From positions 149,834 through 213,833 of the forward strand of contig CAWJCZ010000001.1 of assembly GCA_963841505.1 (NCBI GenBank): a stretch of DNA of 64,000 bases. Direction: 5' to 3'. This document shows positions 3,909 to 62,285 of the stretch, piece by piece. The position numbers were made by a program, and so were the translations under genes. Position 1 is the first letter of the stretch, and each line of letters opens with the position of its first letter. Origin of the DNA: an uncultured Gemmatimonadales bacterium. Lineage in GTDB: Bacteria > Gemmatimonadota > Gemmatimonadetes > Gemmatimonadales > GWC2-71-9. The notes under the pieces are model-generated. The model searched no databases, had not been told where the DNA came from, and was given only the letters and a program-made list of their open reading frames with translations.

Positions 3909-5619
3909 ATGAGCGGTTTCTCCCGCAAGGAGTTTCTGGTGCTGGGAGCGTGGCTGGCGGCAGGCGGACGGGCGGGCTGGCGGACAGTCGGACGAACTCC
4001 AGCCGCCCAGCCGCCCGACAATCCGTTTGAGCCCGACCTCATCCTGGTGAATGGCCGGGTGCTGACCCAGGACGACGGACTACCCCGCGCCGAAGCCTTC
4101 GCCGTGAAGGATGGGAAGTTTCTCGCCGTTGGCTCCAATGCCGATGTCCGGAACCTCGCGACCCCGCGGACCCGGATCATCGACGCGGCCCGGATGACCG
4201 TCCTGCCGGGGTTCATCGACTGCCACTGCCACCCGAGCGGCGTGTCCGAGCTGTTCGATGTGAACGCCAACGTCCGAACCACCGCCGAGCTGCAGGCGAA
4301 TCTCCGGAAGCGGGCCCGGGAGACTCCAGCGGGGTTCTGGGTGGTCGGCGACATGTTCGACGACACCAAGCTGGACCGCGAGCTGACCCGCAAGGAGCTC
4401 GACGCGGTCAGCACCGAGCACCCCATCGCGGTCAATCATCGCGGCGGCCACACCAGCTGGTACAACAGCAAGGCGCTGGAGCTCGCGGGAATCACCCGGG
4501 ATACGCCGGACCCTCCCGACGGCCGGTTCTTCCGGGACGCAAGCGGGGAGCTCACCGGTCGAGTCGCCGAGCTGGCGCGGGGCGTAGTGGCCCGGGCCGG
4601 GAAGCACCAGGAATTCACCCTGGCCGAGGAGCGGGAGCGGGGTCGCCAGGGCATGGCCTACATCTCCGAGCTGCTGACCGCCTCGGGACTCACCACGGTG
4701 CACGATGCGGGCGCTAGTGTCGATCACATCAGCGCGTATCAGGACGTCTATCAGCGTGGGGAGCTTCGCCATCGCAGCTACATGCTGGTGCGGGGCGCCG
4801 CCTTCCCGCGGATGCGGGATGCCGGGCATCTACACCGGGTTAGGGGACGAGTGGCTCCGGGTCGGCCCGGTCAAGTTCGCGGCCGATGGGTCCGCCTCCG
4901 AACGCACCATGCGGATGAGCACGCCGTATGTGGGCACCCAGGACTACGGCATCCTCACCATGACCCAGGACCAGCTCTACGAGGCGGTGGACGACGCCCA
5001 CAGCCACAACTGGCAGATCGGGATCCACGCCAACGGCGACGTCACCATCGACATGGTCCTCAAGGCGTACGAGCGCGCTCTGGGCCAATGGCCTCATCCC
5101 GATCGGCGCCACCGGATCGAGCACTGCACCCTGGTGAATCCGGACCTGATCCGCCGTATCAAGGCGATCGGCGCAATCCCGACTCCGTTCTGGACCTACG
5201 TCTACTTCCATGGCGAGAAGTGGTCTCAGTACGGCGACGAGAAGCTGCGCTGGATGTTCGCCCACCGGTCGTTCCTGGACGCCGGTATCCGGGTGCCGGG
5301 CGCGTCGGACTACGGGCCGGGACCATTCGAGCCCCTCATGGCGATCCAGTCCATGGTGACCCGGCGCGACTATCGCGGGCGCGAGTGGGGACCCAATCAG
5401 AAAGTGACGGTGGACGAGGCGCTCCGGATCGGCACCCTGCACGGTGCCCATGCCTCCTATGAGGAGAAGGTGAAGGGCTCCATCACGGCGGGAAAGCTTG
5501 CCGATTTCGTGATGCTCGAGAAGGACCCCCGCGAAGTGGACCCGAACACGATCAAGGACATCACGGTGGTGCGTACGGTGGTCGGCGGCAGGACCATGTA
5601 TCCCAAGAGCGAGGGGTGA
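3909..5619 (+). CDS. metal-dependent amidohydrolase (amidohydrolase_3-like), one frame break near 4828
   Basis: ATG 3909 with a Tat-like SRKEFL leader. Contains PGFIDCHCHP (HxH metal site). ORF 3684..5462 joins ORF 4705..5619 at ...RMRDAG|IYTGLGDEWLRVGPVKFAADGS. Also contains IGIHANGD and HRIEHC. Confidence 0.75.
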
Positions 5620-5623
5620 TCTC

Positions 5624-6931
5624 GTGATGAAGCGCAACGTCGGCCGGCTCTCCCTGATGATGTTCCTCCAGTACGCGGTCTGGGGCGCCTGGCTGCCGCT
5701 GGCGGCCCGCTACCTCACCGCGAGCACCGGGGAAGGCGGGTTAGGCTTCACCGGGACCCAGATGGGAACCATCCTCGGGCTGGCCGGCTCGATCGGCGCC
5801 ATGGCCGCACCGTTCATCGCGGGGCAGTTCGCCGACCGCCGATTCAGCACCGAACGCTTTTTGGCGTTTCTCCTCGCGGTGGGCGGGGTGGTGAAGTGGG
5901 TAACCGCCTCCCAGACCGGCTTCGGGGCGTGGCTCCTCCTCTCGATCGTCTACAGCGTGGTGTACATGCCGACGCTGGCGCTGTCGAATTCGATGGCCTT
6001 TGCCCACCTCACCAACCGGGATCGCGATTTCGGCAAGATCCGGGTCTGGGGCACGATCGGGTGGATCGCGGCGAGCTGGATCTTCCCGATGATCTACCTC
6101 CAGACCGGCCTGCACCTGCAGTGGATGCCACCATTCCTGGTGGGACCCGAGCTCCCCAACGTCACCCACCGGCTCGCCGATTCGCTCCGGTTCTCCGCCT
6201 TCATCTCGTGGGGCTACGCCCTCTTCTGCTTTGCCCTCCCCCACACGCCGCCCAGGCGCGAGGGAGTAGAGCCTTTGGCGTTCGCCAAGGCCTTCGGCTT
6301 GCTGCGGGTGCGCTCCTTCGCGATTCTGGTCGCGGCGAGCCTGCCGATCAGCATCATTCACCAGGTGTATTTCCTGCAGACCCCGCCGTTCTTCTCGCAC
6401 CTCGGACTGCTGGACAGCCAGATCGGCCCCGCGATGACGATCGGGCAGTTCAGCGAAATCATCATCATGGCGTTGCTGGGTGTAATGCTGGTGCGCCTCG
6501 GGTTCCGGACCGTCATCACGATCGGCGCCTTCGGGTATTTCGTACGCTATCTCATCTGGAGCTTCCCGTCCCTTCCGGTCAGCGTCCTGGTCGGGAGCCA
6601 GTTCCTTCACGGGATCTGTTACGCCTGTTTCTTCGCGGGCGCATACATCTACACCGACCGGGTCGCCCCGCCCGATGTGCGCCACTCCGCGCAAACCGTG
6701 TTCGGCATTCTCATTCTGGGAGGCGGGCCGGTGCTCGGCGGCGTCCTGTCGGGCTGGCTGGCCGACAGCTATGCCAACGTAGGAGGCCAGATCGACTACG
6801 CCGCCCTCTGGCGGGTCGTTTCCCTGATCGGGCTCTTCGCGGCGGTGTTCTTCTGGACCCTCTTCCGGGAAGCCAAGGCCCCGTCCTCCGCTCCTGCAGC
6901 CAAGGGCCCGGCCGAAATCGCGCCGGCATAA
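5624..6931 (+). CDS. MFS transporter (nucleoside/H+ symporter-like, MFS_1_like)
   Basis: 435-aa ORF with about 12 hydrophobic segments. The N-terminus LSLMMFLQYAVWGAWLPLAARYL is typical of NHS-type MFS. Confidence 0.6.
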   Translation: MMKRNVGRLSLMMFLQYAVWGAWLPLAARYLTASTGEGGLGFTGTQMGTILGLAGSIGAMAAPFIAGQFADRRFSTERFLAFLLAVGGVVKWVTASQTGFGAWLLLSIVYSVVYMPTLALSNSMAFAHLTNRDRDFGKIRVWGTIGWIAASWIFPMIYLQTGLHLQWMPPFLVGPELPNVTHRLADSLRFSAFISWGYALFCFALPHTPPRREGVEPLAFAKAFGLLRVRSFAILVAASLPISIIHQVYFLQTPPFFSHLGLLDSQIGPAMTIGQFSEIIIMALLGVMLVRLGFRTVITIGAFGYFVRYLIWSFPSLPVSVLVGSQFLHGICYACFFAGAYIYTDRVAPPDVRHSAQTVFGILILGGGPVLGGVLSGWLADSYANVGGQIDYAALWRVVSLIGLFAAVFFWTLFREAKAPSSAPAAKGPAEIAPA

Positions 6932-8188: not shown

Positions 8189-9063
8189 TGCGCACCTTCG
8201 CGTTGGTCCTCGCCGTCCTCACCGTCCCCGCTGTCCGACTTCCGGCCCAGCAGAAGATCGATCGTCGTTTCGCGGTCGATTCCGATGCCTCCATCCGGAT
8301 CAACAACCTCGCCGGCAACACCCGCCTGATCGGCTGGGACCGGGACAGCATCGTGGTCACCGGATTCGCCCCGCCGGGGACCAGCTTCTTCGGCGGTGGC
8401 TCGGGTCGGCTCGCCAAGCTGGGCCTCGAGCGGGACGAGAAGGTCCCGCTCAGCGGGTTAGGAGAGCTCGAGGTCCGGGTCCCGGCGGGCGCCCGGGTCT
8501 GGGTCAAGACCCTGGAAGGATGGATCGATGCCTCGGGCCTCTCGGGCGAGGCCGACCTGGTAACCGTGGCTGGCTCCATCAAGGTGACCGGATCGCTCCG
8601 GGTCCTCAGTGCGGAGACCCTGGACGGATCGATCGCGGTCGCAGGGGGCTCGCAAATCACCCGGCTCAAGACCGGGGGTGGAAAGGTCGATGTGACCCAG
8701 CCGGTCGGCGACCTGACGGTGTCGACCGTGGGAGGACCGGTCACGCTGCTCGCCGCCGAGCCGGCGTCGGCCCGGATCGAGACCGTCTCCGGTCCGGTGG
8801 TGTATGACGGGAGGCTCGGCCGCCGGGCCACCCTCGAGATCCAGACCCACAGCGGGGACGTGGAGCTTCGGCTGCCCCGCGACACCGGCGCCGAATTCGA
8901 CCTTCATTCCATTGATGGGACCGTCCAGGTCGCTCTGTCGCCCAAGGGTCCTTTCCCCAAGCCGGTGCACGGGAAGCCGCTCTTCTTCGGCAATGCCGGT
9001 GGCGGGGCCAGTGTGGTGGTGCGCTCCTTCAAGGGCGAGATCCGCATCGTGGGGCGCGAGTAG
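8188..9063 (+). CDS. DUF4097-type putative adhesin / beta-helical secreted protein
   Basis: ATG 8188 overlaps the anti-sigma stop by 1 nt. Signal peptide MRTFALVLAVLTVPAVRLPAQ. Repeated G.I.V.G...T..G.V strands. Confidence 0.6.
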   Translation: MRTFALVLAVLTVPAVRLPAQQKIDRRFAVDSDASIRINNLAGNTRLIGWDRDSIVVTGFAPPGTSFFGGGSGRLAKLGLERDEKVPLSGLGELEVRVPAGARVWVKTLEGWIDASGLSGEADLVTVAGSIKVTGSLRVLSAETLDGSIAVAGGSQITRLKTGGGKVDVTQPVGDLTVSTVGGPVTLLAAEPASARIETVSGPVVYDGRLGRRATLEIQTHSGDVELRLPRDTGAEFDLHSIDGTVQVALSPKGPFPKPVHGKPLFFGNAGGGASVVVRSFKGEIRIVGRE

Positions 9064-13170: not shown

Positions 13171-14139
13171 ATGAGCCGCGAGCTCCGGCTCGGCCTGCTC
13201 CTGGTCGGTGCGGGCCTGGTCACCCTGATGATCTGGAAAGTGGGGCCCGCGACCATCTGGAACGGGGTCAGCGGATCATGGTGGGTGGCCCTGGCCCTGA
13301 TCCCGCTCTGGGCGACCGTGTATCTCCTCAATTCGATCGCCTGGCGCCAGCTCACCTCCGCCGGCGGCGCACCGATTCCGCTGCTGCACGCCCTGCGCAT
13401 GACGGTCATCGCCTTCGCGGTGAACTACTCGACCCCGCTCCTGAGCTTTGGCGGCGAACCGCTCAAGGTGATGGCGGCCACCCCGGCTCTGGGGCGCCGC
13501 CGGGCGGTGGGATCTATCGTCGCTTTCCGGCTGCTGCACTCCCTGGTCCACGTCGTCTGGTGGCTGGTCGCCCTGATCCCCGCGGCGCTGCTGCTTCCCA
13601 ACAGCCTGCTCGCGGATTCGACGATCCTGGTGACCGGCGCCGTGATGGTCGGTCTGATCCTCTTTTTTCTTTCCCGCCACCGGGAGGGGATGGCGCTCCA
13701 GTTGCTCCATCTGCTGAAGCGGATCCCTCTGCTCAAGCGGCTGGCCACCCGGCTCGAGCCCCAGGCCGAAGCGCTCCATGAGATCGATCAGCACGTCACC
13801 GAGATCTACAAGCGGGCCCCGGGACGATTTTACGTTGCCTTCGCCGCGGAGTCGGTGGCCCGGCTGCTGTCGCTGGCCGAGTACTGGGTCATTCTCTACG
13901 GGTTAGGGCTGGGGATGAATCCCTGGCGGGCGCTTGTGGTGGCGAGCTTCGCGTCCCTGGTTGTGAACGCACTGATCTTCGTGCCCTTCGAGATCGGGAC
14001 CCGGGAGGGTGGCTCCTATCTCATCTTCCACCTGCTCGGCATCGACCCTGCGCTGGGACTCGCTGCGGCGCTGCTCACCCGGATCCGGGAGCTTACCTGG
14101 ATCGTGATCGGCTGGGCGATGGTCTGGACGGTGAAGTAG
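13171..14139 (+). CDS. lysylphosphatidylglycerol-synthase-TM-like (UPF0104 / flippase-like) membrane protein
   Basis: 322-aa polytopic ORF. The N-terminus LLLVGAGLVTLMIWKVGP...IPLWATVYLLNSIAWRQL is typical of the family. Confidence 0.55.
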   Translation: MSRELRLGLLLVGAGLVTLMIWKVGPATIWNGVSGSWWVALALIPLWATVYLLNSIAWRQLTSAGGAPIPLLHALRMTVIAFAVNYSTPLLSFGGEPLKVMAATPALGRRRAVGSIVAFRLLHSLVHVVWWLVALIPAALLLPNSLLADSTILVTGAVMVGLILFFLSRHREGMALQLLHLLKRIPLLKRLATRLEPQAEALHEIDQHVTEIYKRAPGRFYVAFAAESVARLLSLAEYWVILYGLGLGMNPWRALVVASFASLVVNALIFVPFEIGTREGGSYLIFHLLGIDPALGLAAALLTRIRELTWIVIGWAMVWTVK

Positions 14140-16206
14140 TCAGCTGCCGCCCCGGCGGGCCAGCTCCTTGACGGCTTCGCTGTGTCCATGCTCCGCGGCG
14201 CGGCGGAGCCACTGCATCCCGGTCGCTTCGTCCTTGGTGAACCCGCCCTTGCCGGTGAGCAACCGGATCGCGATCTGGTATTCTCCCTCGGGGTCCCGCT
14301 GCTCCGCCGCCCGGCTGTACCATTGGCCCGCCGCCGCCTCATCCTTCTTCACTCCCTGTCCCCGATCGAGCAGCTCGGCGAGCCGGAGCATCGACGGGAC
14401 GTCGCCCGCTTCGGCCGCCTTCTGGTACCAGCGCGCCGCGATCGCTTCGTTCCGGCGCCGCCCATCGCCCATGGCGTAGCGCTGGGCAATGATCGGCCAG
14501 GCCCGGGAGACCCCCATCGCTGCGGCCACCTCCCATAACCCGGCGCCCTTGTCCCGGTCCGGGCCGCCCGCGATCCCCAGCCCCTGATCGTAGCGCTCCG
14601 CCATGAGCACCACGGCCTGGGTGTCGGGGAGAATCTGGTCCTGCGCCGCGAGTCCCAGGTGCACCGAGGCGAGCCGGTCGTTGCGCGCCACGCCTTTCCC
14701 TTCGGCGTACAGGATGCCGAGGTTGCGCCGGGCCGCACTGCTCGAATCGGCTTCCAGACTGCAGCGCGCGAAGGCGGTGGACCAGTCCTCCAGGTGCATT
14801 GCGTCCTGGCAGGTGGCCGGCACGGCCGGAGCAAGAGTCCCACCGCCCGCGGTGTCGCGGGTTAGGGGCCGGGACGCGGTACCCGGTCGGGTGGCCGGCG
14901 GATTCCGGGTGATCGGCCCGGTCGGGGCAGAGGCCGGGATCCTCCCCGGATCGGGGGGAGCCGGGGGAGAAGCGGTGGACGGCGTGGGCGCCCCGAAAAT
15001 CCCGGCTCGATTCGCTCCGTACCACCCGCCGGCCAGCAGCACCGCCCATACCGCCAGCGTGGCCCACCCCCGCCCGGCTTTGGGCTGGGCCGGATCCGGG
15101 CCGTTCTTCCGGATCTTCCGCCCCTTCACCGCGACCTGCTCGCCCTGAAGCGCTCGGGCAAACTCGTCCATCGAGGCGAAGCGCCGGTCGGGATCTTTCC
15201 GGAGGGCCCGATGGATCGAGGATGAAATGTCGGCAGGAATCTCGGGGAGCATCCGGGAGAGCGGAATCGGCTCGTCGAAGAGCTGGCGCGTCATCACTTC
15301 GCGCACGTTCTCCCCTTCGAACGGCACCCGACCCGACAGCATCTGGTAGCCGACCACTGCGAGCGAGTACTGGTCCGTCGCGGGGGTGAGTGCCTGGTTG
15401 CCGGTCGCCTGTTCCGGGCTCATGTACCGCGGGGTCCCGATGATCACACCGGTGCCAGTCAGGGAATGATCGCCTCCGGCGTCGATCGCCTTCGCAATAC
15501 CGAAATCCATCAGCATCACCCGGCCGGTGCCTCCCTCGATCATCAGATTCTCGGGCTTGATATCGCGGTGGATCACCCCAGCCTGATGGGCGGCGTGTAA
15601 TCCACTCGCAGCTTCAAGAAGAATCCGCCGGGCCTCCGCCACCGGCAGCCGTCCTTCCCGGGCCAGGGCGCCCTTCAGGGTTTCGCCCTGGATCAGCGGC
15701 ATGAGAATCCACAACACGCCCTCCGATTCGCCCACGTCAAAGACCGGCACGATGTGGGGATTCTGGACCGCGCCAACCGCGAGGGCTTCCCGGCGGAACC
15801 GCGCCACCAGCTGCTCGGAGAGAATCAGATCGGGGCGAAGGACTTTGACGGCGAGCTCGCGCTGGAGCCGGAGGTCACGAACCGTGAACACTTCCGCGTA
15901 GCCGCCCCGGCCCAGCAGCCGGCCCAGCTCGTAGTTCGGCCCCAGCGCGGCCTGGAGCCGCTCCGGGGCGACCTCGTAGCTCGGGGTGAGGCCGCCGGCT
16001 CGCCCAGCGCCCAGCAGGGTATCGTCGAGGGGTGCCGCGGTCAGGGATGCCCCGCAGCCCGGACAGAACGCGGCGTCCGCCGGAACCGAGGTGTCACAAC
16101 GGGGACAGGGATGGGTCACGCCGGGTGCCCCATCAGGGCTTGCGTCGCTGCATCTCTCGCTGCGCTTCGGGATGGCCTTTCGCCGCCGCTTGGGCGAGCC
16201 AGGCAT
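14140..16206 (-). CDS. Ser/Thr protein kinase with N-terminal zinc ribbon, TM segment and C-terminal Sel1 repeats
   Basis: CPRCDTSVPADAAFCPGCG; HRDIKPENLM; DFGIAK; GTPRYMSPE; Sel1-like repeats ...LGILYAEGKGVARN.../...AARWYQKAAEAGD.... An alternative GTG start at 16119 would remove the 74-nt overlap with the upstream kinase. Confidence 0.85.
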   Translation of the reverse strand: MPGSPKRRRKAIPKRSERCSDASPDGAPGVTHPCPRCDTSVPADAAFCPGCGASLTAAPLDDTLLGAGRAGGLTPSYEVAPERLQAALGPNYELGRLLGRGGYAEVFTVRDLRLQRELAVKVLRPDLILSEQLVARFRREALAVGAVQNPHIVPVFDVGESEGVLWILMPLIQGETLKGALAREGRLPVAEARRILLEAASGLHAAHQAGVIHRDIKPENLMIEGGTGRVMLMDFGIAKAIDAGGDHSLTGTGVIIGTPRYMSPEQATGNQALTPATDQYSLAVVGYQMLSGRVPFEGENVREVMTRQLFDEPIPLSRMLPEIPADISSSIHRALRKDPDRRFASMDEFARALQGEQVAVKGRKIRKNGPDPAQPKAGRGWATLAVWAVLLAGGWYGANRAGIFGAPTPSTASPPAPPDPGRIPASAPTGPITRNPPATRPGTASRPLTRDTAGGGTLAPAVPATCQDAMHLEDWSTAFARCSLEADSSSAARRNLGILYAEGKGVARNDRLASVHLGLAAQDQILPDTQAVVLMAERYDQGLGIAGGPDRDKGAGLWEVAAAMGVSRAWPIIAQRYAMGDGRRRNEAIAARWYQKAAEAGDVPSMLRLAELLDRGQGVKKDEAAAGQWYSRAAEQRDPEGEYQIAIRLLTGKGGFTKDEATGMQWLRRAAEHGHSEAVKELARRGGS

Positions 16207-22333: not shown

Positions 22334-22393
22334 TATAAGATGTTATAGTCGCGCGTCACGACTACAAGATGTTATAGTCCGACCTAACCCGCC
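22334..22393. repeat. REP-like element: 14-bp direct repeat AAGATGTTATAGTC (22337-22350, 22366-22379) flanking hairpin TAGTCG-cgcgtca-CGACTA, followed by CCTAACCCG
   Basis: Read directly from the sequence. The minus strand contains GTAG next to the palindrome, as in REP heads. It lies 130 nt downstream of the transposase stub. Confidence 0.55.
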
Positions 22394-31246: not shown

Positions 31247-31247
31247 G

Positions 31248-40928: not shown

Positions 40929-41093
40929 CTAACCCGGGGCCTCTGCCTTCTTCCGGAGCCGCAGCGCGCTTAGGTCAGGGCCGCCTTGAGCACGGCTTCC
41001 TCTTCCGATGCGATCGAACGAGCACAGCTCTCGCGCCTCGCCGCCCGGAGCATGATCACCGGTGCCTCCCGGAAGCAGGTCGGGTAGCAAGGG
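40929..41093 (-). pseudogene. orphan copy of the lhr 3' end
   Basis: The minus strand reads ...SIASEEEAVLKAALT* and ...LRLRKKAEAPG-TAG, paralleling the real lhr end (FAPEEEHAIKAALIR...RLRKKAPAPG-TAG at 42846). The DNA at 40928-40965 is near-identical to 42845-42885. Confidence 0.45.
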
Positions 41094-42842: not shown

Positions 42843-42845
42843 ACC

Positions 42846-47263: not shown

Positions 47264-48759
47264 TCAATAGCGGTAATGCTCGGGCTTGTACGGGCCCTCG
47301 ACCTTGACCCCGATGTACTCGGCCTGATCGGGCCGGAGCTGGGTCAGCTTCACGCCCAGCTTGTCGAGATGGAGCCGAGCCACCTGCTCGTCGAGGTGTC
47401 TTGGGCAGGATGTAGACCTGCTTCTGGTACTTCGACGCGTACTTGTGCAGCTCGATCTGCGCCATCACCTGGTTGGTGAAGCTGGCCGACATCACGAAGC
47501 TCGGGTGGCCGGTGGCGCAGCCCAGGTTGAGGAGCCGTCCCTCGGCGAGGATCAGCACGCTGTGGCCGTCGGGGAAGACGAATTCGTCGTACTGCGGCTT
47601 GATATTGATCCGCTTGATCCCCTTGATCTTCTTGAGCCCGGCCATGTCGATCTCGTTGTCGAAGTGGCCGATGTTCCCGACGATCGCCTTGTCCTTCATC
47701 CGCGCCATGTGCTGGCGCGGTGATCACGTCGTGGTTTCCGGTCGCGGTGATGAACACGTCGGCGGTCTCGACCACGTCGTCCACGGTGGTCACCTGGAAC
47801 CCTTCCATCGCCGCCTGCAACGCGCAGATCGGATCGATCTCGGTGATGACCACCCGGGCTCCCTGGCCCTTGAGCGCCTGGGCGCATCCCTTGCCGACCT
47901 CGCCGTAGCCGCAGACCACCGCGACCTTCCCGGAGAGCATCACGTCGGTGGCGCGGTTCAGCCCGTCGATGACCGAGTGGCGGCAGCCGTAGATGTTGTC
48001 GAACTTCGACTTGGTCACCGAGTCGTTCACGTTGATGGCGGGGAAGAGCAGGGTGCCCTTCTCCATCATCTCGTAGAGCCGCCGCACCCCGGTGGTGGTC
48101 TCTTCGGAGACGCCCACGATGCCGGCCGCCACCCTGGTCCAGCGTCCCGGGTGCTTCTTCTGCTCGGCGCGGAGGAGGTCCAGGATCACGCCCCACTCCT
48201 CGGGCTCCTTGTCGGCATCGAAGCCCGGGACCTTGCCGGCCTTCTCGAACTCGGCGCCCTTGTGGATCAGGAGGGTGGCGTCGCCGCCGTCATCGAGCAG
48301 CAGGGTCGGGCCCGACCCGTCGGGCCACATGAGGGCCTGGTCGGTGCACCACCAGTATTCCTCGAGGGTTTCGCCCTTCCAGGCGAAGACCGGCGTGCCC
48401 TGCGGGTTAGCCGGCGTGCCGAGCTTCCCGACCACGACCGCGGCAGCGGCCTGGTCCTGGGTCGAGAAGATGTTGCAGGAGACCCACCGGACGTCGGCAC
48501 CCAGCTCCGTCAGGGTTTCGATCAACACGGCTGTCTGTATGGTCATGTGGAGCGAGCCCATGATCTTCGCCCCGGCCAGGGGCCGCTCCCCGGCCAGCTC
48601 GGCGCGGAGGGCCATCAGGCCCGGCATTTCCTGCTCGGCGAGGCGGATCTCCTTGCGCCCAAGCTCGGCGAGCGAAAGGTCCCGCACCTTGAATGCGGGC
48701 CGGCCCGATTCGCGGGCCGGGGTGAAGGCGTCGGGCGGAAGGGTCGCTGTGGACGTCAT
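47264..48759 (-). CDS. ahcY: adenosylhomocysteinase, two frame breaks (~47715, ~47405)
   Basis: [63 protein letters not shown], and C-terminus [15 protein letters not shown] at 47264. ORFs 47350..48804 and 47247..47708 plus a third frame are involved. Confidence 0.9.
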
Positions 48760-49364: not shown

Positions 49365-51220
49365 TCAGGGCGAATCGCGACGCTGCTCGGTCGGAGTGCG
49401 GCGGAGCCACTCCTCGATGGCAGGAACCAGCTTCCCGGCGAGCTGCTCCGGCGCGCTCCGGGCGCCATGGTGCGGAAGGAGCGAAGGTAGCGCTGGGCCC
49501 GGGTGTCGAAGACGGCGACGAAGAGCATCAGGCTGTCCCGCCGGGATGTGAGCGAGCTGCGGAGCACCGCTGAGGCCCCCAGGGTCATCCCGAGTACCTG
49601 ATCGCTGCCGAACTGCCGCTCCAGCTCGTCGAGCCGGCCTCCACTCAGCACGTGCACGTTGTTCTGCCGGCGAAGGGTCTGGACCAGGGAGTCGGTCACC
49701 GCCGACGCGACATCGCCAGATCACGCTCCCGGCTCACATCCACCACATCGAGCACCACCAGACGATGGGGGCCGCGCGGTGCTGGCCGGCCGGGGGAGCG
49801 GCGAGCTCGGGTGGGAAGCGCCACGCCAGGGCGCTGGTGGGAATTCTGCCCCGGAGGTTCCGCATCACGCGAGGGTCCGCAGCACCGAATCGCCGATGGC
49901 GTGTTCGACCAGGATCCGGACCGAATCCATTCCTTCAGGGTGACCCCGGGGCCGGTGCGGATGGTGATCGTGGCGTTCCGGCCACCACTTCCCCACCGCG
50001 TCGGGAGCCACCGGAGCGGGGCGGCGCCTGGGTGGCCGCCTTCCCGGACTGCTGGTTCGCGGTCCCGATGGGTGCCGGACTCACCGTGCCTCGCTGCTCC
50101 AGGATGCGGCGGGCAAACGCGGCGGCGATGGCTTCCGAATCAGCGCGGGTTAGGGCGCCCTGGGTCGAAGTCCGGATCGAATCCGGCGCCGGCGCGACCG
50201 GCTCGGGCCTGGCTTTCCGGTGCGCCCCCAGCATGGCGTAGGTGCTCAGGCTGGCCGCCAGGAGCATGATCAGCGTGCTGCCCACGAGGACCTGCGCCGG
50301 GGCGCCTTGGGCATGTGGGCGAGCCCCAGTGCGCGACTGATCGCGGGCATCCCGCCCGAGGTGAGCCGCAGCCTGGACAGGGCGCCCAGCAGCTCGTCCG
50401 CGGAACTCCAGCGCGACTCAGGAGCCTTCTCCAGGCACCGCATGATCAGGTCGGAGAGATCAGAGGGGATATCGGAGCGGCGAAGGTGGGGCGGGGTGGG
50501 CCGCTCGGTCATCTGCCGGGCCAGGGTCTGCTGGGGCGAGGAGCCGCTGAACGGGGAGGACCCCGAGAGCAGCTCGTACCCGAGAAGTCCCACCGCGTAG
50601 AGGTCGATGCGGTGGTCGGCCGCTGGGTCGGCGGCAAGCTGCTCCGGCGCCATGTAGGCCGGGGTACCCACCGCGATCCCGATCGTGGTGGCGGCGGTTC
50701 CGGGGAGCGCCTCGCTGATCGCCTTGGCCACCCCGAAATCGGTGACCAGAGCGTGATTCCGCTGGAGCAGAATGTTCTCCGGCTTGATGTCGCGGTGGAT
50801 CAGCCCGCGTCCGTGAGCGTACGCGAGGGCATCCACCACGTCCTGGAGAATGGAGACGACGGTGGCCGCCGGCAGCCGCTTGTCACGATCCAGGCGGGAG
50901 CGCAGGGTTTCGCCCTCGACCAGCGGCATCGTGTAGTACAGGATGTCGCCGACCTGACCCGCGGTGAGCAGCGGAACGATGTGGGGGTGCTGGAGCCGGG
51001 CGGCGAACTGGATCTCCCGGCGAAACCGCTCCCGGTTGACCCCGGCGGTGAGCTCGGGTGGCAGGACCTTGATGACCACCCGGCGGCCGAGGGCGCGTTC
51101 GGTCCCGACGAACACGCGGCTCATCCCGCCCCCGATTTCGCGCTCGATCTCGTAGGTCGAGTCGAGCGCTCCCCGGAGGGTGCTCAGCAGTCCCGGATCG
51201 GGAGAAGCAAAGGATGACAT
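49365..51220 (-). pseudogene. Ser/Thr protein kinase with TM and TolB-N/LpoB-like extracytoplasmic domain, at least 4 frame breaks
   Basis: The kinase domain is intact (HRDIKPENILL, DFGVAK, GTPAYMAPE) in ORF 50270..51220. The TM segment LIMLLAASLSTYAML and downstream RLVVLDVVDVS...AVTDSLVQTLRR... lie in other frames (ORFs 49935..50285, 49241..49699, 49365..49724). Confidence 0.7.
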
Positions 51221-51562: not shown

Positions 51563-52158
51563 TCGACGCCTCCCTTGTTCCATTCGGCTTCGATTTCAGT
51601 CGCGGCCCGATTCAGAATCTCGACGATTTTCGGTACGGCGGGATGTCCCGGTCCAAACCGCCAGGCCCGCTTGTACGAGGCGCGTGCGACTCGGCCGAAG
51701 GCCTGGTGCAGGTCGCCCATGGGCCCCCCGGCAACGTCCCGCACCGTGTCGCGAAGCCGGTCGAAAATGCTCTCGACCGCGTCCTTGTGCTCGGTGAGGA
51801 AGGCCTCGCCCTCGGGGGTGATGTGGTAGACTTTCTTGCCGTTCTCTTCCACCACCCTGACGTACCCTTGATCCTCGAGGAGCTGGAGCGTCGGGTAAAC
51901 GGTTCCCGGCGACGCGGTGTAGCACCCCGCGAGACGCTCTTCCAGGGCTTTGATGACTTCGTAGCCGTGACGGGGCTTTTCCTTGAGTAGGCGGAGGATG
52001 ACAAACTTGACCTCTCCCGACTCAAACATCGGAGCCCGCCTGCGGTGGCGGTTCCGGTGACGTCCCGACCCAGCCCGGAATCCGAAGACGCCGGGCAGGT
52101 CGAACGCGAAGAAGTCAGAAAAACCGCCTAACCCCCAGTCGTCATGTGACTTACGCAT
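51559..52158 (-). CDS. PadR family transcriptional regulator
   Basis: VKFVILRLLKEKPRHGYEVIKALEERLAGCYTASPGTVYPTLQLLEDQGYV is the PadR winged-helix signature. Confidence 0.85.
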   Translation of the reverse strand: MRKSHDDWGLGGFSDFFAFDLPGVFGFRAGSGRHRNRHRRRAPMFESGEVKFVILRLLKEKPRHGYEVIKALEERLAGCYTASPGTVYPTLQLLEDQGYVRVVEENGKKVYHITPEGEAFLTEHKDAVESIFDRLRDTVRDVAGGPMGDLHQAFGRVARASYKRAWRFGPGHPAVPKIVEILNRAATEIEAEWNKGGVE

Positions 52159-52238: not shown

Positions 52239-53375
52239 GTGCTTGTCGTCGCTGGTCTGCTCCTGGCCGGAAGCCTTCTGATCTGGCTCGATCTCTGGTT
52301 CGGTCTCCGGCAGCTGCCCCAGCTTCTGAGTCTCCCCGCCCAGCCGCACGGCCCGATGGTTTCGATCATCGTTGCCGCTCGCGATGAAGCCCGAGGGATC
52401 GCTGACGCGGTGGAGTCGTTCCTGGCTCAGGACTACGAATCGCTCGAGGTCATCGGCATCGACGATCGCTCCAGCGATGGCACCGGCGGGATCCTCGACC
52501 GGCTGGCCCGGGAAGACCCGCGGTTGCGGGTTATGCACGTCACCGACCTCCCGGCCGGCTGGCTCGGTAAGAACCACGCGCTCGCCATGGGCGCCGGGGC
52601 CGCTCGGGGCGAATGGCTCCTCTTCACCGACGGCGACGTGGTGCTGGAACCGGGGGCGGTGGGCCGCGCCGTGGGCCATGCCACGGCGAGCGGATTCGAC
52701 CATGTCACCATCCTGCCCGATCTCCTGGTGCCCGGCTACTGGTTGCAGGTCTTCGTGACCGCCTTCGCCGTCTGGGGCCTTGCCGCGGCCCGACCCTGGC
52801 GGGTTGGGAAACCGGGAAGCCAGCGCCATGTCGGGGTCGGAGCCTTCAACCTGGTTCGCGCTTCCTCCTATCGCGGTGCGGGGGGGCACGAGGCGATCCG
52901 GCTCCGCCCCGATGACGACCTGAAGCTTGGCAAGTTGCTGCTGCGGAGTGGCGCCCGCACGACGGTTCTTCGCGGGCTCCGCGGCGTCAGGGTGGAATGG
53001 TACAGCACGCTCGGAGCCGCGATCGACGGCCTGATGAAAAACTCGTTCGCGGTGGTGGAATACCACGCCACGCTCGCTTTGGGCGGCGTGCTGCTCTATC
53101 TCGTGGCGGGCCTGGGGCCGCTCGGGGTGATTATCGCCGGCGGTGCCGCCGCCAAGGCTCTGGGTGCGGCGGCGCTGGTCTTCCAGGTGCTGGCGGCCTG
53201 GACCATGAGCAGGGAGGTGCCGACCCGGGCCGCTGCGGCGCTGATGTTCCCGGCCGGCTGTCTCCTGCTTGGCTGGGTGGTGCTTCGCGCGACCGTGCTG
53301 ACCCTCGGGCAAAAGGGAATCCGCTGGCGGGGAACCTTCTATTCGCTGGAGGAGCTGCGGCGGAACCGGATCTGA
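52239..53375 (+). CDS. glycosyltransferase family 2, membrane-bound
   Basis: VSIIVAARDE...IGIDDRSSDGT...GKNHALAMGAGAARGEWLLFTDGDV (DxD context), followed by C-terminal TM segments. Confidence 0.75.
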   Translation: MLVVAGLLLAGSLLIWLDLWFGLRQLPQLLSLPAQPHGPMVSIIVAARDEARGIADAVESFLAQDYESLEVIGIDDRSSDGTGGILDRLAREDPRLRVMHVTDLPAGWLGKNHALAMGAGAARGEWLLFTDGDVVLEPGAVGRAVGHATASGFDHVTILPDLLVPGYWLQVFVTAFAVWGLAAARPWRVGKPGSQRHVGVGAFNLVRASSYRGAGGHEAIRLRPDDDLKLGKLLLRSGARTTVLRGLRGVRVEWYSTLGAAIDGLMKNSFAVVEYHATLALGGVLLYLVAGLGPLGVIIAGGAAAKALGAAALVFQVLAAWTMSREVPTRAAAALMFPAGCLLLGWVVLRATVLTLGQKGIRWRGTFYSLEELRRNRI

Positions 53376-54924: not shown

Positions 54925-55091
54925 CGTATCCTCCTCAAACTGCGGGTTAGGTCGGGCGTCGGGCCGGGCCGCCGGACCCTGCCCGGCGCCGGACTCCCCG
55001 GACCGGCCGGTCCGGAAGCCGGGTTACCGGCCGGTTCCGGGGGACCAAACATGCCACCCCGGGCGCTCCCTGTCCACCGTATTATTCCCGG

Positions 55092-56201
55092 ATGAGCGCC
55101 GGCCCCCCTGACCTGGCTTCCGAACCCCCGGCCTCCCGGCTCCGTCCCAGCCCGCTCGCTATTCTGGCTTTTCTCGCGGTGGCCTATACCCTGTATTTCG
55201 CCCGGGCCTTTCTGCTCCCGGTCACCTTCGCGGTCCTCCTGAATTTCGTGCTGGGGCCGGTGGTGCGGGTGCTGGGTCGGTTGCGGATCCCCACCGGCGT
55301 CGGGTCGGCCCTGGTGGTGCTGGGGCTGGTGGGGACCGTCGGGTTCGGGGTGTACAAGCTCGCCGGCCCGGTCCAGGCCTGGGGAGAAAAGGCCCCCCAG
55401 GCGATCGCGGGAGCCGAGCGCGAGCTGCGCAAACTGTTTCGTCCCTTCGAGCGGGTGAGCCAGACCGCCAAGCAGGTGGAGAGCGCCGCCGGTCAGGTCG
55501 GAGGCGTCGAGCCGACCAAGGCCCAGGAGGTCGTGGTCCGGGGGCCGACCCTCCTGTCCCGGCTGTTCGGCTCGAGCTCCCGGGCGGTGGCGGCGCTCCT
55601 GGAGATCGCGATCCTGCTGTATTTCCTGCTCGCGGCGGGCGACCTGTTTCTCCGGAAGCTCATCAAGCTGCTTCCCAATCTCACCGACAAGCTGACCGCG
55701 GTCCGGATTGCCCGGCAGACCCAGGCCTCGATCTCGACCTACCTGGGCACCGCGGCGCTGATCAACCTGATCGAAGGGCTGGTGGTGGCGGCGGCGATGC
55801 AGCTGATCGGCATGCCTAACCCGCTGCTCTGGGGCGCGGCGGCGTTTCTCCTCGAATTCGTTCCCTATCTCGGCGCGGCCCTCCTGACCGTGGTTCTCTT
55901 CGTGGCCGGCCTCTCCACTTTCCACCAGCTGGGACCCGCCCTGCTGCCCCCCGGCGCCCTGATCCTGATCAACCTGCTCCAGGCCAACCTGCTCTACCCG
56001 GTGCTCCAGGGGCGCCGGCTCGCGCTCAACCCGGTGGCGGTGTTCATCGGGATCGCATTCTGGTACTGGATCTGGGGCGTGGCGGGCGCGTTCGTGGCGG
56101 TGCCGATCCTCGCGACCCTCAAGATCTGCGGGGATCACATCGAAGGACTCTCGCCGTTGGGCGAGTTTCTCGGCGCCCGGGACGAAACCCCGCTGCCATG
56201 A
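55092..56201 (+). CDS. AI-2E (PerM/UPF0118) family transporter
   Basis: Polytopic. Contains ...AAFLLEFVPYLGAALLTVVLFVAG... and ...NPVAVFIGIAFWYWIWGVAGAFVAVP..., typical of AI-2E. Confidence 0.75.
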   Translation: MSAGPPDLASEPPASRLRPSPLAILAFLAVAYTLYFARAFLLPVTFAVLLNFVLGPVVRVLGRLRIPTGVGSALVVLGLVGTVGFGVYKLAGPVQAWGEKAPQAIAGAERELRKLFRPFERVSQTAKQVESAAGQVGGVEPTKAQEVVVRGPTLLSRLFGSSSRAVAALLEIAILLYFLLAAGDLFLRKLIKLLPNLTDKLTAVRIARQTQASISTYLGTAALINLIEGLVVAAAMQLIGMPNPLLWGAAAFLLEFVPYLGAALLTVVLFVAGLSTFHQLGPALLPPGALILINLLQANLLYPVLQGRRLALNPVAVFIGIAFWYWIWGVAGAFVAVPILATLKICGDHIEGLSPLGEFLGARDETPLP

Positions 56202-58003
56202 GCAGTGGGGGATCCGCGCTCAACGTCAGTCTGCTGTCGCGGCCCCGCCGCGTGCTCATCGTGGGATGGTTTCTCGGAACGTTGGTGCTGGGCACCCGGG
56301 GCTATCTGGAGTATGCCCAAGCGATCGGGGCCGACCGATCGATCGGAACCGCGCTCTATCACTGCGCCCAGCTCTTCCTCCTCCACGCGCCCCACTTCGA
56401 ACACCCGGTCCCGGTCGCCCTCGAGATTGCCCGCTGGTCGGCGGCGATCTTCCTGGCCGGGACGGTGCTCCAGATCGGTCGCCAGCTCTTTCCCAACGAG
56501 TTTGCCGCCCTGCGATTTCGCCGTTTCTCGAACCACGTGGTCATCGGGGGACTGGGACGGCGCGCGGTGCAGTGCGTGCGCCATGAGCGGGACCATGCCG
56601 GCCGCCGGCGACAGGTGGTGGTGATCGACCGGCAGCCACCCGAGGAGCAGACCCGGGAATGCCTCGCGCTCGGGGCCCACGTGATTACCGGGAACGTGGC
56701 CGATCCCGCGGTGCTCCGGTCCGCCGGGCTGCATCGCGCCGCCGAGCTCTGGGCGCTGTGCCCCGACGATAGCGTGAACTGCGAAACCGCGGTGCAGGCA
56801 GAGGCGGTGCTCGATGCGGCCGCGCGTTACCGGCGCAAACGGGGCCCCCTGCTCTGCAACGTGCACCTCTCCGATGTCGATCTTCGGGTCGAGCTCCAGC
56901 GGCTGGCCCAGCGGACTGTCGAGGGATCGCCGGCGGCGATTCAGTTCTTCGACCTCTACGACCGGGAGGCCCGCCGGGTCCTCCTCTCCGAGCTGCCGAT
57001 CGACCACGGCGGGATCGGCTCCGGGGAAGCCCGCAGACCCCACCTCGTGATTTTCGGGTTCGGCCGGATGGGCCGGTCGGTGGCGCTTCGAGCCGCCAAG
57101 CTGGGGCACTTCGCCAACGGCATCGAGGTTCCGGAACGCAGGCTCCGTATTTCGGTGATCGATCGGCAAGGCACTGCCGGGGAGGATGCCTTTCTGTTTC
57201 GCTATCCCCGGTTCCGTGAGGTCTGCCGGCTGGACGTTCATCAGCTCGACCTTGAATCCGCCAGAGCCCGGGAGCTGATCGAGGAATGGTCGGGCGATCC
57301 GGGAGCCCTCACCAGCCTGGTGGTGTGCTTCGACGACCAGTCCCGGGCGGTCGAAGTCGCCCTTCGGCTTCTCCCGGCGCTTCAGGCCGACGCGGTGCGG
57401 GTCGCGGTGCGGGTGGCCCACCGGGAAGGCCTCGGCGCCATGGTGGACCGGCTGTGGAGCCGGCCCGAGCCGGGAGCGCGGGTTAGGGTCAGGACCTTCG
57501 GGCGCCTCGACGAGGGATGCTGTTCGGCGGCACTCCAGGATACCCGGGAGGAAAAGCTCGCCCGCGCCATCCACGCCGATTTCGTGACCCGGCGACTCGC
57601 CGAAGGAGAGCGGAGTCCGGCCGACCGGAGCGTGGTCCCATGGTCCCTGCTGGAAGAGGACCTCCGCGAATCCAATCGCCAGCAGGCCGACCACGTCGCC
57701 ATCAAGCTCCGCTCGATCGGAGCGGACCTCCATCCTGGCTCGGCAAGCTCCGATGCTCGATTCCGTTTTTCCGGGGGAGAAATCGAGATGCTGGCCCGGA
57801 TGGAGCATCACCGATGGAATGCCGAGCGTCTGCTGGCCGGATGGACCCGGGGGCCCAAGAGCGTCGAGCGGCGAACCAGTCCGTATCTCTGTGACTGGTC
57901 GGAGCTTCCCGAGGAGATCCGGGACTACGACCGCGCCGCGGTACATACCATCCCTGCACTGCTCGACGAGATCGGCCTGCACGGGGAACGTCGCACCCGG
58001 TGA
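56198..58003 (+). CDS. 2-TM, degenerate-pore, double Rossmann (TrkA-N/RCK-like) protein with C-terminal RyR domain
   Basis: ATGA overlap with the AI-2E gene. TM1, then TALYHCAQLFLL (no TVGYG filter), then TM2. HVVIGGLGRRA and HLVIFGFGRMGRS glycine loops. C-terminus EHHRWNAERLLAGWTRGP...SPYLCDWSELPEEIRDYDRAAVHTIPALLDEIGL (RyR). Confidence 0.7.
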   Translation: MSSGGSALNVSLLSRPRRVLIVGWFLGTLVLGTRGYLEYAQAIGADRSIGTALYHCAQLFLLHAPHFEHPVPVALEIARWSAAIFLAGTVLQIGRQLFPNEFAALRFRRFSNHVVIGGLGRRAVQCVRHERDHAGRRRQVVVIDRQPPEEQTRECLALGAHVITGNVADPAVLRSAGLHRAAELWALCPDDSVNCETAVQAEAVLDAAARYRRKRGPLLCNVHLSDVDLRVELQRLAQRTVEGSPAAIQFFDLYDREARRVLLSELPIDHGGIGSGEARRPHLVIFGFGRMGRSVALRAAKLGHFANGIEVPERRLRISVIDRQGTAGEDAFLFRYPRFREVCRLDVHQLDLESARARELIEEWSGDPGALTSLVVCFDDQSRAVEVALRLLPALQADAVRVAVRVAHREGLGAMVDRLWSRPEPGARVRVRTFGRLDEGCCSAALQDTREEKLARAIHADFVTRRLAEGERSPADRSVVPWSLLEEDLRESNRQQADHVAIKLRSIGADLHPGSASSDARFRFSGGEIEMLARMEHHRWNAERLLAGWTRGPKSVERRTSPYLCDWSELPEEIRDYDRAAVHTIPALLDEIGLHGERRTR

Positions 58004-59599: not shown

Positions 59600-60105
59600 G
59601 CACGAGCTTCAAGGTCAACGGCAGGACCGTCACGGTGGACGTTCCGCCCGAAATGCCCCTGCTCTGGGTGCTCCGCGACGTTCTCGATCTCAAGGGCACC
59701 AAGTTCGGTTGCGGCGTCGCGCAGTGCGGCGCGTGCACCGTGCATCTTGGGGGGTCACCGACCCGCTCCTGCGTGCTCCCGGTGTCCGCCGTGAACGGCG
59801 CCGAGGTGACCACGATCGAGGGATTGTCGCCCGACGGCACCCATCCGCTCCAGCGGGCCTGGGAAGAGCTGGACGTGCCCCAGTGCGGATACTGCCAGGC
59901 CGGCCAGCTGATGAGCGCGGCGGCGCTGCTCTCCCGGAAACCCAAGCCGACCGATGCCGATATCGATTCCGCGATGAACGGAAATCTCTGCCGCTGTGCC
60001 ACCTACCTCCGGATCCGCCAGGCGATCCATCTGGCTGCGACGCTTCCCGCCGGATCGGTGAGCTCTACCGGGCGCTCGGGCCCGGGAGAAGGGAGGGAGC
60101 CGTGA
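59596..60105 (+). CDS. (2Fe-2S)-binding small subunit of an aldehyde oxidase/isoquinoline oxidoreductase-type molybdoenzyme (IorA-like)
   Basis: [11 protein letters not shown] and CGYCQAGQ...NLCRCATY cluster motifs. ATGA overlap with the upstream gene. Confidence 0.88.
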
Positions 60106-62285
60106 GCGCCCCGAAGCAGGTCAGCCGGCGGGAGTTTCTCACCGTCACGGCCATTGCGGGCGGCGGGTTGCTCCTGGGCACGCGGGTTACGCGGGCCGCG
60201 AACCCCACCGGCTCGACCGCGGCGGAATTCCTGCCCAATCCGTTCATCCGGATTACCCCGGACGGCGCCGTCACTCTGATCGCGCAGAATCCGGAAATCG
60301 GCCAGGGCATCAAGACCATGCTGCCGATGATTATCGCCGATGAGCTCGATGTGGACTGGAAAGACGTGAGCATCGAGCAGGCCGGACTGGACACCGACCG
60401 CTTCCAGCAACAGTTCGCCGGTGGAAGTACTGCGACGCCGAACCACTGGACCCGGATGCGGAGGGTCGGTGCCGCCGGCCGGGCGATGCTGGTCACCGCC
60501 GCCGCGGAGATCTGGCAGGTTCCCGAATCCGAATGCGAAACCGCCTCGGGAGCCGTCACGCACAAACGGAGCGGCCGCAGTCTCAAATACGGAGCCCTGC
60601 TGCCGAAGGCCGCGACCGTCGCGCCGCCCGCGCTCGAATCGGTGACCCTCAAGGATCCCCGGCAGTTCCGGATCATCGGCCAGCGGATCCATGGGGTGGA
60701 CAACCACGCGATTGTGACGGGAACCCCGTTGTACGGAATCGACGTCAAGGTTCCCGGGATGCTCTACGCGGTGTATGAAAAATGTCCCGTCTTCGGCGGC
60801 ACCGTCAGCAGCGCGAACCTGGAAGAGATCCGGGCCAGACCGGGGATCCGGCAGGCGTTCGTGGTCGAGCCGGGAGCGGGTGGCGCGCTGAACGGGTTGC
60901 TGGGGGGTGTGGCCATTATCGGCGATACCTGGTGGGTCGCCAAGCATGCGCGCGATGGACTCAAGGTGACCTGGAACGAAGGCGAGACGGCGGCCCAGAG
61001 CAGCGCAGGCTTTGCCGCCCAGGCCGCCCAGCTGAGCCGAAGCGCTCCGCAACGGAATCTCCGCAAGGATGGTGACGCCGAAGTGGCGTTGGCCGGGGCT
61101 GCCCGGAAAGTACGGGCAGAATACTTCTATCCGTTCATCGCCCACGCACCGCTCGAGCCGATGAACTGCACCGCGAGCTACCAGGATGGAAAGCTCGAGA
61201 TCTGGGCTCCGAGCCAGACCCCTGCGGGGGGCCGGGCCCTGGTGTCGCGCACCCTGAACATTCCGGAATCCGACATCACGATCCACCTGACCCGCAGTGG
61301 CGGCGGGTTCGGACGGCGGCTCAACAACGATTACATGGTCGAAGCCGCGGCGATCGCGAAACAGGCCGGGGTTCCCGTGAAGCTCTTGTGGACCCGGGAA
61401 GACGACATGCGCCATGATTTCTACCGGCCGGCAGGGTTCCACTACCTGGCCGGCGGGGTCGATTCAGCCGGGAAACTGGTCGCGTGGCACAACCACTTCG
61501 TTTCCTTCGGCGAGGGCGAGCGATTTGCCCCGGCCGCCGGCCTCGGCGCGACCGAATTCCCCCAGCGTTTCATTGCCAATTATCAGCTGGACGCATCGGT
61601 GATGCCGCTTGGCGTTCCCACCGGGGCATTGCGAGCGCCGACCAGCAACGGCGTGGCGTTCGTGATCCAGTCATTCCTGGATGAGCTGGCCCATGCGGCG
61701 GGGAAAGATCCGGTCGCCTTCCGGCTCGACTTGCTCTCCAACGCACCCGAGGGCGAGGGTTTCAATGCCCAGCGGATGGGTGCAGTGCTCGCGCTGGTCG
61801 CCGAGAAGTCGGGTTGGAGCGCGCGGAGGAAGGAGCGGGGCAAGGGGATGGGGGTGGCTTTCCACTACAGCCACCGCGGTCACTTCGCCGAGGTGGTGCA
61901 GGTGAGCGTGACCCGAGCCGGGGCCCTGACGATCGAGAAGGTCTTCGTGGCGGGCGATATCGGCAGTCACGTCATCAATCCGCTCAACGCGGAGAACCAG
62001 GTCCAGGGAGCGGTGCTCGACGGACTGGCGGAAGCGCTGGGGCAGCAGATCACCATCGAAAAAGGCCGGGCGGTCCAGAGCAACTTCCACGACTTTCCCC
62101 TGCTTCGGCTGACCCAGGCGGTCCCGATCGAGGTGTTCTGGAGCCAGCCCGACTTCCCGCCCACCGGGTTAGGGGAGCCGGCGCTTCCCCCGGTCATCCC
62201 CGCGCTCTGTAATGCGATATTCGAGGCGACCGGGAAACGGATCCGGTCCCTGCCGATCGGCAAGCAGGACCTGAGCTGGACATAA
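60102..62285 (+). CDS. molybdopterin-binding large subunit (IorB-like), Tat-exported
   Basis: GTG 60102 in a GTGA overlap. Tat motif [19 protein letters not shown]. Full-length aldehyde oxidase/xanthine dehydrogenase-family similarity. The track ORF start at 59709 is an out-of-context extension. Confidence 0.85.

Follow-up and report, generated by a model that had tools for sequence, protein, structure and literature searches.

Why does a single short word, CGGGTTAGG, recur throughout a stretch of DNA from an uncultured Gemmatimonadales bacterium? The stretch, referred to here as the window, comprises 64,000 nucleotides of contig CAWJCZ010000001.1 (assembly GCA_963841505.1), and this 64-kb window contains 21 occurrences of CGGGTTAGG and 22 of the octamer GGGTTAGG. 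Shuffles that preserved dinucleotide composition gave expectations of 0.20 and 0.80 copies, respectively, with a maximum of 2–3 in 100 shuffles. For CGGGTTAGG we expected 0.81 copies from independent base composition and 0.23 from a third-order Markov (Markov-3) model. When word frequencies were taken from 0.7 Mb of GC-matched relatives, 0.09 copies of CGGGTTAGG and 1.6 of its core, CGGGTTA, were expected, values kept low by the usual avoidance of TTA and TAG in high-GC coding DNA. The core is present in 43 copies against 3.9 expected (Markov-3). The enrichment of CGGGTTAGG in the window is 100–250-fold and holds under the Markov-3 model, and in an unbiased k-mer scan of the window, words containing CGGGTTA ranked far above all others. 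The 22 GGGTTAGG sites listed by the initial annotation were all present where it had placed them. As it had stated, 21 of the 22 extend to CGGGTTAGG; the exception (52127..52134, minus strand) is preceded by G (GGGGTTAGG) and is the sole octamer site without a 5′ C.

The word is short and sharply delimited. C precedes 43 of the 44 GGGTTA copies in the window. The base after the core is G in 22 cases, T in 9, C in 8 and A in 4, a tally that bears out the roughly 20 further cores with another next base reported initially; the two bases after the core are GG in 21 cases and TG in 8. Outside the core, information is limited to S at −1 and G at +9, giving a full consensus of S-CGGGTTA-K-G, or about 10 bp. 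Analysis of the site flanks revealed no longer motif and no AT-rich flanks of the kind seen in the uptake signal sequence (USS). Because the flanks of different sites are unrelated, the word is a free-standing oligomer and not the core of a repetitive extragenic palindromic (REP) sequence, a miniature inverted-repeat transposable element (MITE) or another repeat. Such dispersed repeat elements were ruled out, as the flanks are without information outside positions 0 to 9 and the sites are mainly intragenic. The core occurs at 0.67 per kb, approximately once per 1.5 kb, and the perfect nonamer approximately once per 3 kb.

Using a TPR/Peptidase_MA protein (28754–31246) and a TrkA_N/RyR protein (56198–58003) as handles, we fetched the syntenic loci of relatives. 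By AdoHcyase and other genes, the window itself belongs with uncultured metagenome-assembled genomes of the order Gemmatimonadales (Gemmatimonadota). The enrichment recurs in eight loci from six or more related Gemmatimonadales genomes, Illumina assemblies among them. These motif-bearing loci share 64–85% protein identity and 70–82% DNA identity with the window and carry the word at window density. Among long-read assemblies, L081 has 11 cores and 7 perfect nonamers in 21 kb, L082 has 13 and 7 in 22 kb, and L092, on the same contig as L082, has 10 and 6 in 22 kb. The two JGI loci have 3 cores and 3 perfect nonamers in 12.5 kb (L083) and 14 and 8 in 22.5 kb (L084), a MEGAHIT k141 locus (L085) has 9 and 3 in 22.5 kb, and a SPAdes locus (L093) has 12 and 8 in 22 kb. 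Over nine loci (the window and the eight loci of relatives, 212 kb), the density in the clade is 0.55 cores and 0.31 nonamers per kb. A metagenome scan yielded two loci, one of them a duplicate.

The three syntenic sister lineages that we fetched (L089, L090 and L091; 58–66% protein identity; the motif-free sisters are GCA_036002045.1, GCA_964439025.1 and ERZ2606016 NODE_6) have 0.05 cores per kb, and 80 other loci (1.33 Mb from other Gemmatimonadota, Acidobacteriota and others) have 0.03 cores per kb and a single nonamer. Thus, the word is specific to one clade of Gemmatimonadales and absent from its sisters. In L085, the most distant motif-bearing genome, GCGGGTTA is retained and the 3′ AGG is weaker; this looser 3′ end may be an incipient dialect. 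Among the top k-mers of sister lineages we found no dialect word beyond this weaker 3′ end: those in L089 and L085 proved to be local tandem heptamer or octamer arrays that are not dispersed, those in L083 and L091 were at chance or peptide level, and we rejected both. The arrays consist of tandem (TGGGCTA)n heptamers at 9052–9086 and 12493–12534 of the motif-free L089 (GCA_036002045.1), at the starts of two adjacent genes, and of (CCCACTAT)n octamers at 1972–2011 of L085. Both could be phase-variation-like.

Conservation was followed in a 16-kb alignment of six genomes and a 17-kb alignment of three. Compared with L081, L082 and L084 (77–82% nucleotide identity), perfect nonamers were kept in 5 of 6 cases, versus 12–18% for all 9-mers in that alignment (difference, P ~1e-3 to 1e-4); it is the DNA word itself that is kept. 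Core-only sites turn over faster than perfect nonamers, and further sites are lineage-specific gains or losses. An antisense site at 31395 is identical in six genomes and its flanks vary. Different lineages spell the same residues as GGT-CTG-GGC, GGA-CTG-GGA or GGG-TTA-GGG, and some sites were created together with an amino acid change (Ser/Ala to Gly at 29106).

We then related the cores to reading frames, with counts resting on intact gene calls in the window and frameshifted genes counted apart. In sense, 11 cores read xxC-GGG-TTA, 7 read CGG-GTT-Axx and 3 read xCG-GGT-TAx; 9 are antisense, in two frames, and the remainder are intergenic, at gene boundaries or in frameshifted genes. Approximately 5 of the 43 sites are truly intergenic. 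Cores therefore occupy five of the six frames, the empty one being that which would introduce an in-frame TAA. In xCG-GGT-TAx, where a TAG would end translation, the three intragenic copies all carry TAT, and the word otherwise stands at a gene end in this frame, a pattern expected of a DNA-level pull held in check by coding. TTA accounts for 18 of 1809 Leu codons (1%), confirming its expected rarity, and GGG precedes 12 of the 18. GGG-TTA-GGN is used by 9 of 20 Gly-Leu-Gly tripeptides. This pattern had been reported for 12 sites; the pattern stands, with a count of 11, of which 8 lie in intact gene calls and 3 in frameshifted genes (38556, 39170 and 46856). The word accounts for the anomalous TTA codon usage in motif-bearing genomes. 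Frames, codon usage, conservation between orthologues and the synonymous gain and loss of sites all support the initial proposal that selection or drive acts on DNA and not on protein.

The sites are balanced between strands (23 cores on the plus strand and 20 on the minus strand) and are spaced more evenly than randomly placed sites (coefficient of variation 0.67 versus 0.96, P = 0.004; 42 sites). Across 131 kb of clade sequence, we counted 39 perfect sites versus 0–12 for each single-mismatch word, and over-representation falls approximately 100-fold, from ∼25-fold at zero mismatches to 0.24 at one. The corresponding drop is 92-fold for the USS of H. influenzae and 82-fold for the DNA uptake sequence (DUS) of N. 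gonorrhoeae (Bakkali, PMC1939737). These data demonstrate a force that acts genome-wide on duplex DNA, favors one exact word, is indifferent to strand, frame and gene, and has been active throughout the divergence of a family-level clade. Irrespective of its function, the word adds a further case to a genomic phenomenon that is very rare, and does so in a new phylum.

What could exert such a force? To our knowledge, uptake sequences are the only non-palindromic words of known function with such a genomic signature. Because DUS and USS are the sole asymmetric words that combine this signature with a known function, we favor, with a probability of roughly 0.45, the interpretation that the word is a DNA-uptake or self-recognition tag kept by uptake bias and homologous recombination. 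A surface DNA receptor of the transformation machinery, such as a minor pilin of a type IV pilus, would bind the word preferentially, so that DNA fragments from conspecifics would be taken up and recombined more often. Mutations creating the word would spread and mutations destroying it would be replaced, a molecular drive by which the word would accumulate wherever coding constraints permit. By analogy with the known systems, this interpretation presumes competent cells, a receptor and an uptake bias for this word. The initial annotation had named an uptake-signal-like sequence among its candidates, and this candidate appears to agree with each property that could be tested. The two small inserted islands absent from relatives (∼22.4–24.3 kb and 40.94–42.84 kb) contain 0 internal copies versus ∼2.6 expected, a depletion that runs in the direction predicted by uptake and is not significant. 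A stronger claim, which we advance tentatively, is that CGGGTTAGG is a genuine DNA uptake signal; it would then be the first outside Proteobacteria, and such signals would have arisen independently a third time. The literature treats uptake sequences as confined to two proteobacterial families, Neisseriaceae and Pasteurellaceae, and debates whether they exist for mate recognition or as a result of molecular drive from uptake bias.

Several observations weigh against an uptake tag. The Pfam results for the window and the fetched loci included no competence or pilus gene (type IV pilus or secretin, ComEA, ComEC, DprA), and we found no literature report of competence or uptake sequences in Gemmatimonadota; for the word itself, we found nothing in the literature outside telomere papers. 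Unlike DUS, the sites are not concentrated as inverted pairs in intergenic terminators, the sole paired copy being an intragenic palindrome, CGGGTTAACCCG (29438–29449). The 16-kb alignment contained no recent inter-lineage recombination tracts, although few are expected because the lineages are 70–82% identical. Finally, a very abundant chromosomal protein that binds DNA sequence-specifically would also account for each property tested.

Such a protein, clade-specific and in line with the protein-binding site named among the initial candidates, might be nucleoid-associated, chromosome-organizing or a self-marking component of a defense system, with each site held by ordinary purifying selection for binding and with no role in uptake. 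The word acts as duplex DNA independently of strand and frame, its spacing is even, perfect sites are kept across genomes that are 70–82% identical, and its distribution is restricted to one clade, all in keeping with a binding site. However, the rapid gain and loss of sites between sister genomes fits a genome-wide drive better than site-by-site selection, and the density and exactness of the word are unlike those of known nucleoid, segregation or occlusion sites. The sites of parS, matS, SlmA and Noc number tens per genome, and abundant nucleoid proteins bind degenerate sequences; we know of no nucleoid, segregation or occlusion protein that uses an exact 9–10-bp word at ∼0.3–0.7 per kb mainly in genes. 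We consider this explanation unlikely, if worth serious attention.

Mutation or repair could instead drive the motif without any function at individual sites, as has been proposed for the cyanobacterial word HIP1; this is a poorer candidate and in our judgment improbable. Here, DNA modification coupled to repair resembling very short patch (VSP) repair, or gene conversion, would regenerate CGGGTTAGG; the modification target listed initially belongs under this heading. The enrichment is indeed genome-wide and indifferent to gene function, and sites arise by point changes from near-cognate words. Yet no neighboring word is depleted as a source pool: no one- or two-mismatch neighbor is depleted relative to GC-matched relatives, and we rejected conversion from a neighboring word, whether biological or by base-calling, on this ground. 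VSP-type effects shift word frequencies well under 2-fold, and the enrichment seen here is far beyond them. A contiguous, non-palindromic 9–10-mer is also atypical for methyltransferase specificities, and no methyltransferase or Vsr-like gene turned up in the Pfam results for the window open reading frames (ORFs) or the gene calls of L081–L086 and L089–L093.

A Chi-like recombination hotspot read by RecBCD/AddAB, or a polar architecture word read by FtsK, such as FtsK-orienting polar sequences (KOPS) or architecture imparting sequences (AIMS), has very little in its favor. As an over-represented, G-rich oligomer, the word has roughly the expected length, and five cores lie within the DNA-repair helicase gene lhr. 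Chi- and KOPS-type words are co-oriented with replication, with ∼75% or more on one strand. In the window, cumulative GC skew is monotonic and without a switch, and under this skew a polarity of 75% is rejected by the 23∶20 split of the cores (binomial test, P = 0.002); 44 kb of a relative's contig_16002 (ERZ25039533, 479 kb) gave 13∶10. The enrichment is also far above that of known Chi sites. The recombination site of Chi type suggested initially is thus disfavored by the lack of strand polarity.

A translational signal, in which selection falls on the rare TTA codon or on the Gly-Leu-Gly peptide, as in bldA-type regulation, would explain why 11 of 43 cores read xxC-GGG-TTA in sense and 8 of these 11 continue as GGN, but it has next to no chance of being correct, given sites in two other sense frames, two antisense frames, intergenic DNA and across stop codons, an antisense site (31395) kept in six aligned genomes, and the use of the word by just 9 of 20 Gly-Leu-Gly tripeptides. 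Equally negligible is the initially suggested systematic consensus error at a modified motif. Single-base insertions mark the window as an unpolished long-read assembly, breaking its amidohydrolase, sigma-54 activator, MoxR, DUF4175 and lhr genes, and 15.6 kb of the relative L081 contain 53 private indels that shift the frame, so the idea of a sequencing or polishing artefact needed a serious test. It is refuted by equal density, often at orthologous positions, in Illumina-type assemblies (L083/JGI, L084/JGI, L085–86 k141 and L093 SPAdes), because a nanopore base-calling error cannot be common to short-read assemblies of other samples; the undepleted neighboring words argue against it as well. 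Several motif sites stand close to frame changes. On alignment to intact relatives, the insertions in the window lie 100–800 nt from motif sites, and others are far away (near 11.08 kb and 32.3 kb); we regard the proximity as coincidental and rejected a link between motifs and frameshifts. The Chi-like, translational and artefact explanations are effectively excluded.

The individual sites are as follows, by window coordinates and strand. Perfect nonamers that read Gly-Leu-Gly in sense lie in the amidohydrolase gene (4836..4844, +; GGG-TTA-GGG), a nucleoside:H+ symporter gene (5737..5745, +), at 8454..8462 (+), and in the LPG_synthase_TM (13899..13907, +), DUF5916 (19440..19448, −), TPR/Peptidase_MA (30109..30117, +; kept in L081–L084, GGT-CTG-GGC in L085), lhr (46854..46862, −; kept in L092) and molybdopterin oxidoreductase (62165..62173, +; kept in L092) genes. 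The copy at 33097..33105 (+) forms the end of the MoxR gene (Gly-Leu-Gly-stop) and overlaps the ATG of the next gene, and that at 57479..57487 (+), which is window-specific, reads CGG-GTT-AGG (Arg-Val-Arg) in sense. Antisense nonamers are found in a Ser/Thr kinase gene (14858..14866, +; Leu-Thr-Arg), the DUF4159 gene (31395..31403, −; Pro-Asn-Pro, kept in 6 of 6 aligned genomes), the truncated C-terminal part of a kinase gene (50146..50154, +; kept in L092, CGGGTCAGG in L093) and an AI-2E transporter gene (55815..55823, −; Pro-Asn-Pro, kept in L092). The frameshifted DUF4175 gene contains two copies (38556..38564, +, kept in L081, L082 and L084; 39170..39178, +, kept in L081, L082, L084 and L085), and the reverse complement of a third (39601..39609, −) gives its TAA stop codon (39603–39605), as the initial annotation had noted. 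A copy at the lhr 3′ end (42845..42853, −) provides the putative TAG stop codon of lhr, and another ends the orphan copy of the lhr 3′ end (40928..40936, −; putative TAG stop) and is followed by a hairpin repeat. The remaining two are intergenic: one at the edge of a low-GC insertion, adjoining hairpin repeats (22383..22391, −), and one whose core is kept in L092 and L093 (54943..54951, +).

Cores outside perfect nonamers fall into a few variants. CGGGTTATG is found at 721..727 (+; frame xCG-GGT-TAT, where TAG would be a stop), 14536..14542 (−; sense GGG-TTA-TGG), 16206..16212 (−; frame GGT-TAT), 24362..24368 (−; kept in L081 and L082), 29106..29112 (+; frame GGT-TAT, the site that arose with the Ser/Ala-to-Gly replacement, present in L085 too), 34794..34800 (+; kept in L081 and L082), 52527..52533 (+; kept in L092) and 63786..63792 (+; sense GGG-TTA-TGG). 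CGGGTTACG is found at 350..356 (−; antisense), 1938..1944 (−; intergenic), 43537..43543 and 46214..46220 (both −, in lhr) and 60183..60189 (+; window-specific). CGGGTTAAC occurs at 27036..27042 (−; common to the window and L082) and 37020..37026 (−; kept in L081, L082 and L084), and CGGGTTACC at 43851..43857 (−; lhr) and 55020..55026 (+; intergenic). Single copies are those of CGGGTTACT (28474..28480, −) and CGGGTTATC (36224..36230, +), both window-specific, and of CGGGTTAGC (48403..48409, +; antisense in the AdoHcyase gene, kept in L092 and L093). In the palindrome (29438..29449, both strands), two cores overlap, one per strand.

The frameshifted genes of the window are the amidohydrolase gene at ∼4.8 kb (3684–5619), the sigma-54 activator gene at ∼11.08 kb (∼11057–11111), the MoxR gene at ∼32.3 kb (∼32314–32385), the DUF4175 gene (36047–39605; 1186 codons) and lhr (42845–47200), which is split into six pieces or more. 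Alignment with relatives, where available, traces the breaks to single-base insertions (32314, 38264, 38455, 38747 and 38948). These frameshifts look like uncorrected long-read errors and not pseudogenes.

Between the genes for EF-P and HGSNAT_cat, the window has a 2.4-kb low-GC (∼0.58) insertion (21902–24329) that is absent from L081, L082 and L085. It starts with a 32-codon remnant of a Y1 transposase (PF01797; 22010–22105, 75% identical), a gene that is intact in L084 at the same spot, and the rest consists of unannotated low-GC ORFs. A hairpin repeat, CTAYRAsnnGTTATAG, is present in three copies (22333–22350, 22362–22379 and 40907–40922) versus 0.04 expected, and the latter two each lie 5 bp from a copy of CCTAACCCG at the edge of an inserted island. 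The hairpins may be REP-like sequences tied to the Y1 transposase remnant, which would resemble a REP-associated tyrosine transposase (RAYT), or features of att sites. We rejected an IS200/REP-type element as the source of the motif: hairpins stand beside just 2 of 43 sites (22383 and 40928) and therefore do not explain it.

The second island concerns lhr, whose 3′ end is duplicated (40928–41061 versus 42845–43196; 78–87% identity in three collinear blocks), with ∼130 nt of orphan sequence matched over ∼350 nt of lhr. The two copies flank a 1.9-kb island with a DUF4143/AAA_14 ATPase gene (41260–42363). The arrangement suggests an element that inserted at the 3′ end of lhr and carried in a substitute for that end; we saw no integrase. 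The Bat/MoxR-type operon at 25522–39605 (GATase1_like, TPR/Peptidase_MA, DUF4159, MoxR AAA_3, DUF58, BatA/VWA and DUF4175) is syntenic in all relatives fetched. Other over-represented words in the window are TGGCCAA/TTGGCCA (18 versus 4.3), CACCGTG/CACGGTG (31 versus 10) and the palindrome TTGGCCAA (8 versus 0.5 expected, Markov-3), and CGCGCGC is strongly depleted (19 versus 115 expected from other Gemmatimonadota relatives).

If the word is an uptake tag, an uncultured clade of soil Gemmatimonadales would be naturally transformable and prefer its own DNA, which would point to natural transformation in a phylum that is abundant in soil and has no documented case, and comparison of motif-bearing with motif-free sisters could reveal a new sequence-specific DNA receptor. 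An independent case would give models of uptake sequences a natural replicate to be tested on, and this one lies in an uncultured phylum that is distant and high in GC. The sharp boundary of the word, with the same gene order in sister lineages that have it and that lack it, makes the mechanism approachable by comparative genomics. Whatever its function, the word offers a clade-specific marker for binning contigs and spotting foreign DNA.

How does the word compare with known systems? It resembles Chi (e.g., GCTGGTGG), KOPS and other polar words in being short, G-rich, over-represented and dispersed through genes. In contrast to CGGGTTAGG, with its 23∶20 orientation and 100–250-fold enrichment, those words are strongly co-oriented with replication and modestly enriched. 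It shares with HIP1 (GCGATCGC) of cyanobacteria the properties of a hyper-abundant, lineage-specific word on the octamer scale that is conserved at the DNA level in genes and whose function is unproven; however, HIP1 is palindromic and overlaps methyltransferase sites, whereas CGGGTTAGG is asymmetric and not its own reverse complement.

The USS of Pasteurellaceae (AAGTGCGGT / ACAAGCGGT) differs in having AT-rich flanking segments, where CGGGTTAGG has no information beyond ∼10 bp, and CGGGTTAGG belongs to a high-GC genome in which the TTA and TAG it contains are otherwise avoided. Like USS, it has a 9-bp core that lies mainly in genes, in frames set by coding and with some amino acid changes, it is evenly spaced, and its one dominant frame yields a common tripeptide (Gly-Leu-Gly in this case). 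The DUS of Neisseriaceae (GCCGTCTGAA and its dialects), bound by the minor pilin ComP, belongs to another phylum, is unrelated in sequence and is enriched as inverted pairs in terminators, which our word is not. The likeness to DUS lies in a non-palindromic word of 9–12 bp that is found in both orientations, in and between genes, at about one per 1–3 kb, with a steep fall in enrichment from perfect to one-mismatch copies, and that is common to a family-level clade, with a hint of a dialect in L085.

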